From positions 1 through 8,030 of the forward strand of contig JAWBON010000051.1 of the NCBI GenBank assembly GCA_038826135.1: 8,030 nucleotides of DNA, given 5' to 3'. Every line of letters starts with the position of its first letter. Positions within the stretch are counted from its first letter, which is position 1. Both the position numbers and the translations under genes were made by a program. This document shows positions 2,500 through 6,991 of this stretch, piece after piece. Origin of the DNA: Candidatus Odinarchaeota archaeon (lineage in GTDB: Archaea > Asgardarchaeota > Odinarchaeia > Odinarchaeales > Odinarchaeaceae). The notes below the pieces were generated by a model. That model saw nothing but the letters and a program-made list of their open reading frames with translations. It searched no databases and had not been told where the DNA came from.

Positions 2500-3012
2500 T
2501 CATCGAGTGAAAGTTAAAGCAGCCGCCATTTCTATGAAAATTTTATCTATGTTCTGCCCGGTCTTGGACGAGATCGGGTAGAATTCTTTTAAACTATATT
2601 TTCTAACTAATTCTTTTATTTGATTAGCATACGGGTTATCTGTAATTAGATCGGATTTAGAGCCTGCGAGAATGATTGGTATAGAGTCCGTGTTTTCCTT
2701 AACAAGTTCCAACCATTCCGGTAATGCTAGAAAAGTCGAGTAACGGCTTTGATCGAATACTACAATAGCCCCTTGAGCTCCTCTACAGAAAGAGGGAAGA
2801 AGTGTTCTGAAACGCTCCTCCCCTCCTAAATCCCATATCTGCATTTTCACCGTTAGCCCCTGTAGGTTTACAGTTGCTATTGCAAAAGAGACGCCGATGG
2901 TGGTTTTACTGTGAGTGAACTGGCCGGTCATGTACCTTTTTATAAGTGTGGTTTTTCCCACACCGCCCTCTCCAACGATTATGACTTTGTAGAGTTTTGG
3001 GTAGAAGCTCAT
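2500..3012 (-). CDS. Rab-like small GTPase (Ras superfamily, Asgard type), no lipidation tail
   Basis: G1 GEGGVGKT, G2 TTIG, G3 WDLGG, G4 GSKSD, G5 SSKT. RabF-like motifs IGVSF, KMQIW, RFRTL, FCRGA, VVFD. GGAG RBS (ctcc 3020-3023). Confidence 0.93.
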   Translation of the reverse strand: MSFYPKLYKVIIVGEGGVGKTTLIKRYMTGQFTHSKTTIGVSFAIATVNLQGLTVKMQIWDLGGEERFRTLLPSFCRGAQGAIVVFDQSRYSTFLALPEWLELVKENTDSIPIILAGSKSDLITDNPYANQIKELVRKYSLKEFYPISSKTGQNIDKIFIEMAAALTFTR

Positions 3013-3087: not shown

Positions 3088-4392
3088 CTAAACAGTAATT
3101 AACTTTTCGAAGCCCGCTACATTTAATGGAGCGAACTCGTAGCTAACATTAACAATCGGCGAATCGTCTTTAAGCATAGATTTAAGATCAGCCGGCGTCG
3201 CGGACACTATCACATCGAATACAGCCCCCTTAATAGTGCGGAGAAAATCTCTTCTCTGCGCATCATTATACCCCACCGCGGGTACAACATTCCCTATATG
3301 CGGATAAATCCTGTAAATATCTTTAAGAAAACCTTTAGCGTAAGGCCTCGGATCAACCACAACACCACCATGTTCAATAGCGTAAGAGTAAGCCGCTCCG
3401 AAGCTTAACCCACCGTGAGTTATTGAAGGCCCGTCTTCAACCGCCAGCACCTTTTTACCCTTCAAATCAAGCGGGGGTGAACCTTTCTTCTTTAAAACAC
3501 CTTGGATAATTTCAGCTCCAGGATTTAAAGCCTTAGCATAGCTATATATCCGCTCCACATTCTCCTTAGGCGATATATCAGTCTTAGTCACCACTATAAT
3601 ATTCGCTCTCCTAAAATTAACCTCACCAGGGTAGTATTCGACAATATGATCCGGTCTTAAACCATCCACAACTACAATATTCAGATCAGTCTCATAAAAC
3701 GGGAAGTCATTATTACCGCCATCCCAGATTATAACATCACCCTCACTCTCCGCAGCGTTAAGAATCCTCCCGTAATCAACACCAGCATAAACCACTGAAC
3801 CGGCTCTAATATGCGGCTCTATATCCTCCCGCTCCTCAACTGTGCAATTATTAATATCTAAATCCTCCAGCGACGTGAAACGCTGCACAACCGCCTTAGA
3901 AAGATCCCCGTAAGGCATAGGATGCCTAATAATAACAGGTTTATAACCCCGCTTTTTTAAAAGACCTGCCACATAACGGGTTACAGGGGATTTACCAACA
4001 CCCGTGCGCACACCACAAACAGATATAGATTTAACTGTGGGCTTCAGCATAGTCGACTGCGGGGATAATAAAACAAAGTCACAGCCAACTGATTGAACTA
4101 AAGCGGCTTTTGAAAGCAGCTCCTTGTAAGAAACATCACTGTAAGAGAAGAAGACTTTTTTAACATTATATTTGGCAATTAACTCAGTCAGCATGCTTTC
4201 ATTATATATTGGTATGCCTTCAGGGTAACCGCGTCCGCTTAACTCAGGCGGATAAATTCTTTCATCCACTCCAGGTATCTGACCTGATGTGAAAGCTACA
4301 ACATTGTAAAGCGGATTCTCCTTAAAATAAACATTAAAGTTGTGGAAATCCCTGCCAGCAGCCCCCATTATTATAATGTTCACAGCCTTCAT
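3088..4392 (-). CDS. COG2403 P-loop protein: arginine synthetase (ArcE)-like / cyclic 2,3-diphosphoglycerate synthetase family
   Basis: N-terminal IIIMGAAGRDFHNFN, Walker A GVRTGVGKS, RHPMPYGDL, YAGVDY, WDGGNNDFPF, EDGPSITHGG, DPRPYA. GAGG RBS (cctc 4399-4402) 6 nt upstream. Subfamily assignment is from recalled sequences. Confidence 0.85.
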   Translation of the reverse strand: MKAVNIIIMGAAGRDFHNFNVYFKENPLYNVVAFTSGQIPGVDERIYPPELSGRGYPEGIPIYNESMLTELIAKYNVKKVFFSYSDVSYKELLSKAALVQSVGCDFVLLSPQSTMLKPTVKSISVCGVRTGVGKSPVTRYVAGLLKKRGYKPVIIRHPMPYGDLSKAVVQRFTSLEDLDINNCTVEEREDIEPHIRAGSVVYAGVDYGRILNAAESEGDVIIWDGGNNDFPFYETDLNIVVVDGLRPDHIVEYYPGEVNFRRANIIVVTKTDISPKENVERIYSYAKALNPGAEIIQGVLKKKGSPPLDLKGKKVLAVEDGPSITHGGLSFGAAYSYAIEHGGVVVDPRPYAKGFLKDIYRIYPHIGNVVPAVGYNDAQRRDFLRTIKGAVFDVIVSATPADLKSMLKDDSPIVNVSYEFAPLNVAGFEKLITV

Positions 4393-4418: not shown

Positions 4419-4946
4419 TCACTCTGTCTGAGAGCGCATCTTCGTGAAAAGCTGTTTAAGCTCAGTGTTAAGAGCTTGTCTAATATTTATAGGATTAATA
4501 GGTCTAGGCGGCTGCGGCTCCTGGGTTTGAGGGGCAACTGCCGGCGCAGCGTATGCAGCTGGTTGAGTAGGATAAGCCGCTCTAGCCTGCTGTGAAACCT
4601 GCGGAGGGGTGTAAACAGGCTCCTCAGGCGGAAGAGACTCCTCCTCAACTGGCTCCTCTCTTATAACTGGTTTTCTACTCGGAGCTGGCGCGCTTTGAAC
4701 AACCGGTTTAACAGCCTGCGGTGTAACACCGCCCCCAGCGATTCTGTTAACTCTCTGTTCAAGCATAGAGAGCCTCTGGTTAATAGAACTGCTTAAATTG
4801 TTAAGATTCTGTTCAAGCATATCCACAGCGTTAATCACGATTTCAAGCGTTCTAGTTAAGATCATCGCTAACTCTTGAACTTGTTTATTAACAGACTGCC
4901 CGGATATGTGAGAGAGTAAATCTGACAGGTCGTCGCTCATTTTCAT
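4419..4946 (-). CDS. Hypothetical protein: N-terminal coiled coil, Pro/Ala/Gln/Glu-rich linker, C-terminal amphipathic helix; true start may be 4940
   Basis: 175-codon ORF filling the gap between two same-strand genes. AGGTG RBS (cacct 4948-4952) 7 nt before Met3. Clear heptad pattern over residues about 23-69, and 20 Pro in residues 76-152. Confidence 0.85.
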   Translation of the reverse strand: MKMSDDLSDLLSHISGQSVNKQVQELAMILTRTLEIVINAVDMLEQNLNNLSSSINQRLSMLEQRVNRIAGGGVTPQAVKPVVQSAPAPSRKPVIREEPVEEESLPPEEPVYTPPQVSQQARAAYPTQPAAYAAPAVAPQTQEPQPPRPINPINIRQALNTELKQLFTKMRSQTE

Positions 4947-5069: not shown

Positions 5070-5828
5070 TTATTGTTCATTAACAGGTTCACCGTTAACA
5101 CTTTCCAGCTTATTTTCACCCGCATCATTCTCCTTTCTTTTATTCAAAACAACAGACCAGTCGATCTTCAATATAAAGTAAATAAGCAGTATTGTTCCTA
5201 TTATAGCCAGCACTGTTCCTATAGTCCCTCCCCCTGTAAAAATTAATTCAACAAAACCCCAGCCTAGGCGACCGCCGAAAGCTAGTAAAGAGCATAACAG
5301 TATTTTACCAAATATGCAGGCTATAAGGGCCTTAGCTAAATTATATCTTAACACACCTAAAGGTATAAGAAGCGTGTCATCAGGTAAAGGTGTAGCAGCG
5401 AAGAGAACAATCGCCCAAAAACCGTATCTTTCAATCAACGCTCCAACAGACTTCAAGTTTTTCTCATATTTTCTTTCTATAAACTTTCTTCCACCTAAAC
5501 CTATAAGATAAGCTGAAACCTCACCTATACCGGATCCTAAACCGCAGATGAGGGCTAATAGCAGCGGGTTTATGAATGGTTGAGCTCCCAGTAGAAAAAT
5601 AGCTAAAGCATATGGAACAGGTAAAAAAACTGTGAAATTACTGAAGGTTGATATGATAAAAGCACCGAAATAAGCGGAAACCGGATTATTAACTACAAAA
5701 TCATACATTACAGTTGACAGGCCGTCGAAAAAAGCCATTATCCCCGGGGATGAAAAAACAATATATAAGACTATTCCGGCTACGATAACAGCTGTAATCA
5801 TATAAATATTTGAACGCTTTAACCGCAT
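5070..5828 (-). CDS. DedA/VTT-domain (SNARE-associated Golgi protein family) membrane protein
   Basis: Re-entrant-helix-like segments ISTFSNFTVFLPVPY and LFAATPLPDD, the GLGSGIGEVSAYLIG helix, YGFWAIVLF, and several hydrophobic spans. Start uncertain (5828 or Met10 at 5801). Confidence 0.85.
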   Translation of the reverse strand: MRLKRSNIYMITAVIVAGIVLYIVFSSPGIMAFFDGLSTVMYDFVVNNPVSAYFGAFIISTFSNFTVFLPVPYALAIFLLGAQPFINPLLLALICGLGSGIGEVSAYLIGLGGRKFIERKYEKNLKSVGALIERYGFWAIVLFAATPLPDDTLLIPLGVLRYNLAKALIACIFGKILLCSLLAFGGRLGWGFVELIFTGGGTIGTVLAIIGTILLIYFILKIDWSVVLNKRKENDAGENKLESVNGEPVNEQ

Positions 5829-6064: not shown

Positions 6065-6991
6065 ATGGTGGCGAGTTTGGAAAAGATTAAAGCGATCATT
6101 GAGATTATGAGACCGGCTAATGTTATTGTAGGGAGTGTAACCACCACGATATCTGTTTTAACTGTTAATGAAATACTGCGCGTTGAGGCTTCTATCAGCC
6201 TTCAACCATTAATGCTAGCGGTTTTTTTAGTGTTATCTTATTTCACATATTTCAGCATAGCTGTTGCGGGTAATATAGTTAACGATATATTCGATATTGA
6301 AGTGGATCGGGTTAACAGACCTAGTAGACCTTTACCAAGTGGCAGACTCACAGTTAATGAAGCTAAAGGCCTAACCGTATTATTCTGGGCCACTGGAGTG
6401 ATATTAGCGTTTTTAACAAATATTATAGGAGGAATCATAGCAATCCTTTTCTCAATAGTGGGATTCACATACGCTTCTAAAGGTAAGGTAATGGGTATAA
6501 TAGGAAATTTCATGGTGTCTTTTTCATTCGCTTTCGGATTAATATATGGGGCTATAATCGTTTACTTTCAGCTTCTCGGATTAATAGGTATACCCTCAAT
6601 CATATGGCTTTATTTTATAACCTCTTTCATGGTTTTACAGGGGCGGGAGATTATAAAAGGGATGGAGGATGTTGAAGGAGATGCGCTGCGAGGGGTTCAA
6701 ACAATAGCACGAAGATACGGTGTTTTATCAGCCTCAAAGATTGCAGTGATATCGAATATAATAGGGATGATCGCGTTCACATTAGCGCTGACTCTATCTC
6801 TTACCGGTTTCACGCCGCTGCCGAGAATATTATTTTCGATACTGTATATTCCAGGTATGATAAGCGTTGGTGCATCAACTGTTTTTATAAAATTAGGTCA
6901 TAGCGATAAGGAGAAGCAGAGAAAAGCAAGCTTCCTAGATAAGATAGGGGCTTTTATAGGATTATTCGCTTTTCTAATAGGTGTATTCTAA
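6065..6991 (+). CDS. UbiA-family prenyltransferase, likely digeranylgeranylglyceryl phosphate (DGGGP) synthase
   Basis: MRPAN, NDIFDIEVDRVNRPSRPLPSG (first Asp-rich motif), GREIIKGMEDVEGD (second motif), GNFMVS, and multiple hydrophobic spans. Confidence 0.88.
   Translation: MVASLEKIKAIIEIMRPANVIVGSVTTTISVLTVNEILRVEASISLQPLMLAVFLVLSYFTYFSIAVAGNIVNDIFDIEVDRVNRPSRPLPSGRLTVNEAKGLTVLFWATGVILAFLTNIIGGIIAILFSIVGFTYASKGKVMGIIGNFMVSFSFAFGLIYGAIIVYFQLLGLIGIPSIIWLYFITSFMVLQGREIIKGMEDVEGDALRGVQTIARRYGVLSASKIAVISNIIGMIAFTLALTLSLTGFTPLPRILFSILYIPGMISVGASTVFIKLGHSDKEKQRKASFLDKIGAFIGLFAFLIGVF

Follow-up and report, generated by a model that had tools for sequence, protein, structure and literature searches.

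The 8,030-nucleotide stretch analysed here (the window) comprises positions 1 to 8,030 of contig JAWBON010000051.1 from the genome assembly GCA_038826135.1 of a Candidatus Odinarchaeota archaeon. On its minus strand, at positions 4419-4946, it carries an open reading frame (ORF) of 175 codons whose product had earlier been read, from the sequence alone, as a protein with the layout of WAVE/WASH-complex subunits, comprising a coiled coil, a proline-rich linker and a WH2-like helix (hereafter the original prediction). [quoted passage not shown] The features of the gene and its product are as follows.

4419..4946, minus strand: coding sequence of the family member, 175 amino acids (aa) plus stop; the probable start Met3, at base 4940, gives 173 aa
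4737..4940, minus strand: long amphipathic N-terminal helix, residues 3-70, the presumed oligomerising coil (AlphaFold2 and heptad check)
4815..4874, minus strand: family-defining N-terminal core, residues 25-44 (family alignments)
4509..4736, minus strand: disordered tether rich in Pro, Gln and Ala, residues 71-146 (pLDDT, alignments and proline count)
4422..4508, minus strand: nearly invariant C-terminal peptide, residues 147-175 (alignments and AlphaFold2)

Anatomy of the protein and spread of its family

The three-part layout of coil, proline-rich tether and terminal helix is borne out by both AlphaFold2 and the alignments. In the AlphaFold2 model, obtained with 11 homologues, residues 3-70 form a helix with predicted local distance difference test (pLDDT) values above 90 across residues 21-60, residues 73-143 are disordered (pLDDT <50), and residues 152-174 form a second, amphipathic helix (pLDDT 78-89). 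All of the hydrophobic heptad residues named in the original prediction (L30, L34, V37, V41, L44, L48, L51, I55, L59, L62, V66 and I69) were confirmed. Strongly hydrophobic residues occupy 8 of the 9 a/d positions between residues 26 and 56, a value equalled by 319 of 20,000 shuffles, and the heptads stutter between I55 and L59. The tether contains both LPPEEPVYTPP and PQPPRP, and the count of 20 prolines in 77 residues (76-152) is likewise correct (P = 4e-11 against the 4.1% proline of the genome's long ORFs). A GGG taken for a hinge does sit at residues 71-73, yet it is not conserved even within the Odinarchaeia. The true start is probably Met3, since orthologues begin M-S/G-[DE]-[DE]-F and a GGTG stands 7 nt before the second ATG.

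Conservation is strong in both terminal helices throughout the Asgard orthologues, which was a measure that the original prediction had set for itself; the remaining coil and the linker are free to vary, with a tether of ~60-100 residues depending on lineage. Within the N-terminal core, E25, I29, I36, V37, A40, D42 and L44 are invariant or nearly so, and because a second conserved hydrophobic seam runs along heptad positions c/g (I29, I36 and A40), besides that at a/d, the core probably contacts more than one helix. The consensus of the C-terminal peptide is P-x-[SN]-P-x-[SN]-[AI]-R-x-A-[LI]-[NQ]-x-E-L-K-x-[LA]-F-x-[KR]-x-[KR]. Its helix varies solely at residues 157, 161, 165 and 168, that is, at every fourth position, with R156, A/Q158, L/I159, N/Q160, E162, L163, K164, L/A166 and F167 kept. 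Roughly three of the four helical faces are therefore constrained, which fits a buried surface and suggests that the helix is buried in a protein interface.

A first search returned 11 proteins, every named one of which is from the Odinarchaeia, and a single-sequence search of 1.8 billion representatives returned 10 matches that include distant members of like layout. A repetitive protein of 1591 aa among these 10 was rejected as a low-complexity artefact. The profile search recovered 52 proteins, with named sources that are all Asgard (Odin-, Frey-, Jord-, Hel-, Loki- and Hodarchaeota). A six-frame search picked up members in 151 of 301 Asgard genomes, from 42 of 70 genera, although related genomes in these counts are not independent. 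Detection was near-complete in two families of the GTDB taxonomy, here designated f9 (64/68) and f12 (18/19), and weak or nil in f4, f14, f17 and f27, where the absence of a match may reflect the limited sensitivity of the search in divergent families. In the ESM Atlas, the nearest clusters consist of Asgard hypothetical proteins, and residues 1-72 are without any named cluster. NCBIfam and Pfam, at default thresholds, gave no significant match for the family protein. Members with a longer or fused architecture were sought and not found, which is weak evidence.

Several genomes carry more than one member. The genome of the window encodes a 207-aa paralogue of the same coil, proline-rich linker and C-terminal helix layout (contig C92, L068:2907-3530, minus strand); a scan of this genome for further carriers of the C-terminal peptide returned the gene at 4419-4946 alone. 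Tandem family genes occur at L015:5598-6441 and L061:6597-7432, beside Roadblock-like, V4R and large SNAP/AAA_16-type genes, and five or six family matches are present in genomes G239 and G296.

Comparison with WAVE, WASH and WH2 proteins

The family resembles WASP-family factors of the WAVE and WASH complexes, which are accompanied by the short coils BRK1, CCDC53 and HSBP1, in the order of its modules (an assembly coil, a proline-rich region and a terminal helix), and its heptads resemble those of a short trimer-type coil. The kinship with WAVE/WASH complexes that had been proposed from these features was supported by no test. Profile searches gave generic coiled-coil matches only, an outcome that had been named beforehand as speaking against such a kinship. 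HSBP1 (Pfam PF06825) and CCDC53/WASHC3 (Pfam PF10152) were the commonest families in a lenient Pfam scan of 12 members, with matches in 5 members each, but the best scores were 16.5 bits against a cut-off of 28.6 for the former and 15.5 bits against 24.6 for the latter. The HSBP1 matches have inconsistent registers (offsets of 28, 21, 28, 1 and 10 residues); in the genome of the window, the top matches of this model fall in other genes, and it also has matches in 13 of 14 control genomes. Those to CCDC53 cover the last part of the coil together with the low-complexity linker, at offsets that shift between members. Because the scores are below threshold and the registers differ, often by whole heptads, the matches to both models are considered generic coiled-coil similarity. 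Among the matches listed in profile searches of the PDB (3 matches; the best 60 of 148 at E <= 10), there was no BRK1, WAVE or HSBP1 chain; those listed are to Dad2, designed coils, reovirus sigma-1, HA2, cavin, the gp41 N-peptide and coronavirus HR1, and are weak and mostly trimeric coils. The segment that had been likened to the WAVE homology coil, RLSMLEQRVNRI, is not conserved outside the Odinarchaeia, and the invariant residues of the family differ from those of the WAVE coil as quoted in the original prediction: the invariant I36 is N in the WAVE string given there.

The terminal helix fared no better as a WH2 motif. Searched against the whole genome at E <= 10, the Pfam WH2 model (PF02205) matched nothing, and it was also absent from the lenient scan of 12 members. 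The WH2-type motif of Asgard gelsolin is LKDV (bioRxiv 10.1101/2025.11.30.690169); family members end F-x-[KR]-x-[KR], and neither LKDV nor an LKK[TV]-type motif (LKKV included) follows the amphipathic helix. A check of the sequence for a VCA-type acidic C-terminal segment with a conserved Trp was negative, in agreement with a caveat already attached to the original prediction: the protein has no Trp, and its last 29 residues, which end ...ELKQLFTKMRSQTE, carry a net charge of +3. In lacking a WH2 consensus, Trp and an acidic segment, the family is unlike WASP-family factors, and it is unlike the WAVE and WASH complexes in that its genes have no genomic link to actin (see below). By these comparisons of profiles and motifs, no kinship of the family with WAVE, WASH, BRK1 or CCDC53 can be demonstrated, and the protein of the window is not a WH2 protein.

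Gene context

Short distances between the family gene and Vps4 span five GTDB families. On the same contig, the two genes are 8.0, 7.9, 9.1 and 8.9 kb apart in four Odinarchaeial genomes (f1/f2), and the corresponding distances are 5.0 and 5.0 kb in two genomes of f15, 5.3 and 5.4 kb in two genera of Atabeyarchaeia (f13), and 10.3 kb in f5. The genes that lie between them differ by lineage, and the arrangement is therefore not one frozen block. In f2 the family gene is found between two ESCRT-III genes, and in G038, a genome of the Freyarchaeia (one of six lineages without Vps4 linkage), it is 18 kb from an ESCRT-III pair. The ESCRT-III genes of the Atabeyarchaeia are 210 kb from Vps4, and it is therefore with Vps4 that the family gene goes in that lineage. 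In the closed genome of Atabeyarchaeia-1 (G012:C1), Vps4 and its 235-aa neighbour are at ~319-325 kb and two ESCRT-III (Snf7) genes are at 532 kb. Separately, the Vps4 encoded in the genome of the window (contig C57, L003:1471-3126) is 551 aa long, whereas that of Odinarchaeum LCB_4 has 383 aa; the additional ~170 residues are intein-like, starting with Cys after the Walker A sequence GPPGCGK and ending ...SHN.

Genes for actin and gelsolin are found elsewhere. In five closed genomes, actin is 170-740 kb from the family gene, and no gelsolin match over the cut-off occurs within 170 kb of it; a weak gelsolin-family match in G038, which falls short of the cut-off, comes closest at 80 kb. Odinarchaeum G001 alone has profilin close by (17 kb), whereas in the Freyarchaeia and Atabeyarchaeia it is far from the family gene. 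The actin match of G001 (G001:C1:534630-535773) is split into two parts (model positions 5-376 and 370-408), which are in different open frames and 13 nt apart, and may represent a frameshift or a small intron. No description of the family was found in the ESCRT and actin literature that was searched. A broad survey of ESCRT neighbourhoods covered five genes on either side of ESCRT genes (PMC11188069), and in Odinarchaeum LCB_4 the family gene is outside that five-gene reach.

The immediate neighbours within the window are the following.

5070..5828, minus strand: DedA/VTT-domain membrane protein, directly upstream (Pfam PF09335)
3088..4392, minus strand: P-loop protein of 434 aa, 26 bp downstream (no significant Pfam family)
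2500..3012, minus strand: Ras/Rab-like small GTPase, the third gene in the order found in Odinarchaeum-type (f1) genomes (Pfam PF00071, E 7e-37)
6065..6991, plus strand: UbiA-family prenyltransferase, divergent from the DedA gene (neighbour comparison)

The order in the Odinarchaeia is UbiA (divergent), DedA/VTT, the family gene and the P-loop gene, followed in f1 only by the Ras-like GTPase. The P-loop protein has weak similarity to LpxK, CobW and HypB; its gene is paired with the family gene in the Odinarchaeia only, and the two are probably co-transcribed. The block of UbiA, DedA and family gene is common to Odinarchaeia and Freyarchaeia-type contigs. Directly upstream of the family gene, a DedA/VTT gene is present in the Odinarchaeia and on a single contig of Freyarchaeia type; in f12 it stands two genes upstream. 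At one Freyarchaeia locus (L006:6574-6681), DedA/VTT is reduced to a remnant of 37 residues upstream of an intact family gene, and a second (L057) had no DedA match. A search for an operon partner conserved throughout the phylum was negative; neighbours are lineage-specific, among them Elf1, tRNA intron endonuclease and Pelota.

In f9, the largest family sampled, a 207-aa protein without a Pfam family or a named ESM Atlas cluster is encoded directly upstream of the family gene (L049:6243-6866, plus strand; also L050, L064 and L065). It is predicted to fold into three long helices (pLDDT 86) and is termed BAR-like after the structures that it matches best. The top rows of a Foldseek search include arfaptin (TM-score 0.64-0.68), and in VIA, arfaptin was matched with a Z of 13.4 over 186 residues, a value near 13 being only borderline for helical bundles, with BAR domains filling 10 of the top 11 rows. 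The matches comprise the BAR domains of arfaptin, SNX1/5, Lsp1, ACAP and APPL.

A possible partner for the end helix

Of the explanations considered here, the one that we favour, as a tentative proposal held at somewhat below even chances, is that the partner of the end helix belongs to the Vps4/ESCRT machinery. The N-terminal helix would bundle into a homo-oligomer, possibly a trimer because its heptads resemble those of trimeric coils, and each chain would present its C-terminal helix on a flexible arm of ~60-100 residues. This helix would dock in a groove of its partner rather than merely lie on a membrane. Given the gene context, the partner would most likely be a component of membrane-remodelling machinery, for which the Vps4/ESCRT system is the first candidate, and the protein could bring Vps4 or an ESCRT component to membrane sites that DedA- or BAR-type proteins mark, or hold it there.

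A parallel to this terminal helix is provided by the MIM1-like tails (MIM1 being one of the MIT-interacting motifs) that Lu et al. (PMC7240154) described in Asgard ESCRT-III proteins. Those tails are short amphipathic helices at the extreme C-terminus behind a flexible, proline-containing linker, and the family has the same format, with a helix at residues 152-174 of 175 that follows a disordered proline-rich tether. Asgard ESCRT-III proteins of the Vps2/24/46 class end ...LP.P...ELEK[DE]I.KLK plus 2-5 residues, and family members end ...P..P...ELK.LF.[KR].[KR] plus 0-7 residues, the spacing E-L-x3-hydrophobic-x-[KR]-hydrophobic-[KR] being common to both. MIM1-bearing ESCRT-III proteins are read by Vps4's MIT domain, and it is near Vps4 that the family gene is located in the five GTDB families named above. 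The family helix differs from Asgard MIM1 in being more hydrophobic, with an L-F pair, and in lacking acidic positions, and the family has no ESCRT-III core. In a predicted complex of the Vps4 MIT domain with residues 131-175, the score was 0.02 against a mark of 0.32, which counts neither for nor against binding. The likeness to MIM1, drawn from sequence comparison, is a lead only.

If the family genes were placed at random, the finding of at least 4 of 10 lineages linked to Vps4 would have P = 6e-7, or P = 1.4e-3 with no more than two of the events in 8 lineages taken as independent, and these values are to be read with the fact that the 10.3-kb threshold for linkage was picked after the data had been viewed. 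That choice is one of several points that weigh against a Vps4/ESCRT partner. The family gene is never adjacent to Vps4, and unrelated genes always intervene. No linkage to Vps4 was observed in f7, f9, f16, f19, f20 and f23, where the two genes are 167-771 kb apart or on separate contigs, and f4, f14, f17 and f27 encode Vps4 and have no detectable or only a weak family match. A MIM1 position-weight matrix, a 13-mer built from 21 Asgard ESCRT-III tails, ranked the C-terminus of the protein 60th among 2330 ORF ends of its own genome (-5.7 bits), which is not significant, and 128th when Odinarchaeial training sequences were left out. The C-terminus of the 207-aa paralogue ranked 8-9 of 2330 by the same matrix. 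Comparison by hhalign with alignments of the Asgard Vps2/24/46 and Vps20/32/60 classes gave probabilities of 13.8% and 4.3%, respectively, neither of them significant, although the best local alignment with the latter class pairs the two C-terminal helices. Finally, both the oligomerisation and the docking of the helix are themselves inferred. As to descent, Snf7 (Pfam PF03357) had no match in the default or the lenient 12-member scan, and by this and the two hhalign results the protein is not an ESCRT-III relative.

Tethered C-terminal membrane-targeting helices of the MinD and FtsA type offer another model, in which the basic amphipathic helix would anchor the oligomeric coil to acidic lipids, and the protein, as a peripheral membrane tether, would maintain lipid or curvature homeostasis together with the DedA/VTT or BAR-like proteins encoded nearby. 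The helix shares with those of MinD and FtsA its basic, amphipathic character and its flexible linker. Its charge over the last 29 residues, the RRKK- or KRRR-type ends found in many lineages, the adjacent or nearby DedA/VTT genes of three lineages, the lipid-synthesis-type gene UbiA beside them and the BAR-like neighbour of f9 are all consistent with such a role. We nonetheless hold it to be unlikely. The polar residues R156, N/Q160, E162 and K164 are invariant across the phylum and only one face varies, which is unusual for a lipid-binding helix and sets it apart from those of MinD and FtsA; moreover, the predicted body of the protein is only an oligomerising helix and not an ATPase or an actin-like fold. 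The Freyarchaeia loci with a DedA remnant beside an intact family gene (L006) or no DedA match (L057) also weigh against this role.

A role in actin regulation, in which the C-terminal helix of an oligomeric coil would occupy the hydrophobic groove of lokiactin (in the manner of WH2, VASP or arcadin-2) and the tether would recruit profilin-actin, appears less likely again. The layout of the protein is that of nucleation-promoting and elongation factors, and there is an archaeal precedent in arcadin-2, a regulator of Pyrobaculum crenactin, the last 17 residues of which form a helix in the hydrophobic groove of crenactin (PDB 5LY3; Kd 31 nM; PMC5173319). Both are small archaeal proteins, and by analogy the conserved C-terminal helix of the family may, like that of arcadin-2, be the working part and dock in a groove of the partner. 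Arcadin-2, however, is encoded in the arcade cluster beside crenactin and relies on a Trp for binding (PMC5173319), whereas the family has no Trp and its genes are far from actin. Proline runs of six to nine residues (P6-P9) in some family members, the profilin gene near the family gene in G001, and the recovery of BAR-domain proteins, short of significance, in a lokiactin co-immunoprecipitation (bioRxiv 10.1101/2025.11.30.690169) would also fit an actin regulator. The longest proline run in the Odinarchaeial protein, however, is of two residues, and because the profilins of Odin- and Lokiarchaeota are reported not to bind the polyproline of VASP (PMC8410842), a profilin-recruiting linker is weighed against. 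To this are added the missing WH2 match and motifs, the missing acidic tail, and the genomic distances to actin, gelsolin and, in the Freyarchaeia and Atabeyarchaeia, profilin. A combined role, in which the protein is an oligomeric actin-assembly factor or actin-membrane linker whose invariant end helix binds lokiactin and which, beside BAR, DedA and ESCRT proteins, couples actin to membrane remodelling, is given a slim chance. Such a linker would anticipate WAVE/WASH- or VASP-type factors in function without being homologous to them.

Alternatively, the end helix may need no external partner, if it packs on the N-terminal core in cis or across subunits to make a self-contained bundle like a trimer of hairpins. 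The two conserved segments are of similar length (~20 residues each) and always co-occur, the core has its second hydrophobic seam at c/g, and several of the trimeric coils among the PDB matches (HA2, the gp41 N-peptide and coronavirus HR1) accept outer helices; these matches, however, are weak and generic, and as a simple clasp within the molecule a disordered tether of 60-100 residues would be unusually long. This arrangement is therefore considered very unlikely. Equally improbable is that the protein serves the small GTPase and the P-loop protein encoded downstream as an effector or scaffold, with a coil that would be a binding surface like those of Rab/Arf effectors. In favour of this, the three genes are tightly arranged in genomes of Odinarchaeum type (the spacers here measure 26 and 75 bp), Roadblock-like genes stand beside the family in Helarchaeota-type loci, and small GTPases are bound by BAR domains of the arfaptin type, to which the f9 neighbour is best matched structurally. 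The P-loop neighbour, however, is conserved in the Odinarchaeia only and the GTPase in f1 only, and chance adjacency is likely because Asgard genomes carry very many small GTPases. These readings and that of a Vps4/ESCRT partner are not all mutually exclusive.

Under either a Vps4/ESCRT or an actin reading, the C-terminal peptide of 29 residues offers an inexpensive and direct means of finding the partner. The family to which it belongs is compact and phylum-wide, with two nearly invariant putative interaction modules and no annotation. Were its members to bind actin, they would supply a factor that has so far been missing; if they are accessories of Vps4/ESCRT, they would add an Asgard-specific component to a machine that has been thought well catalogued.

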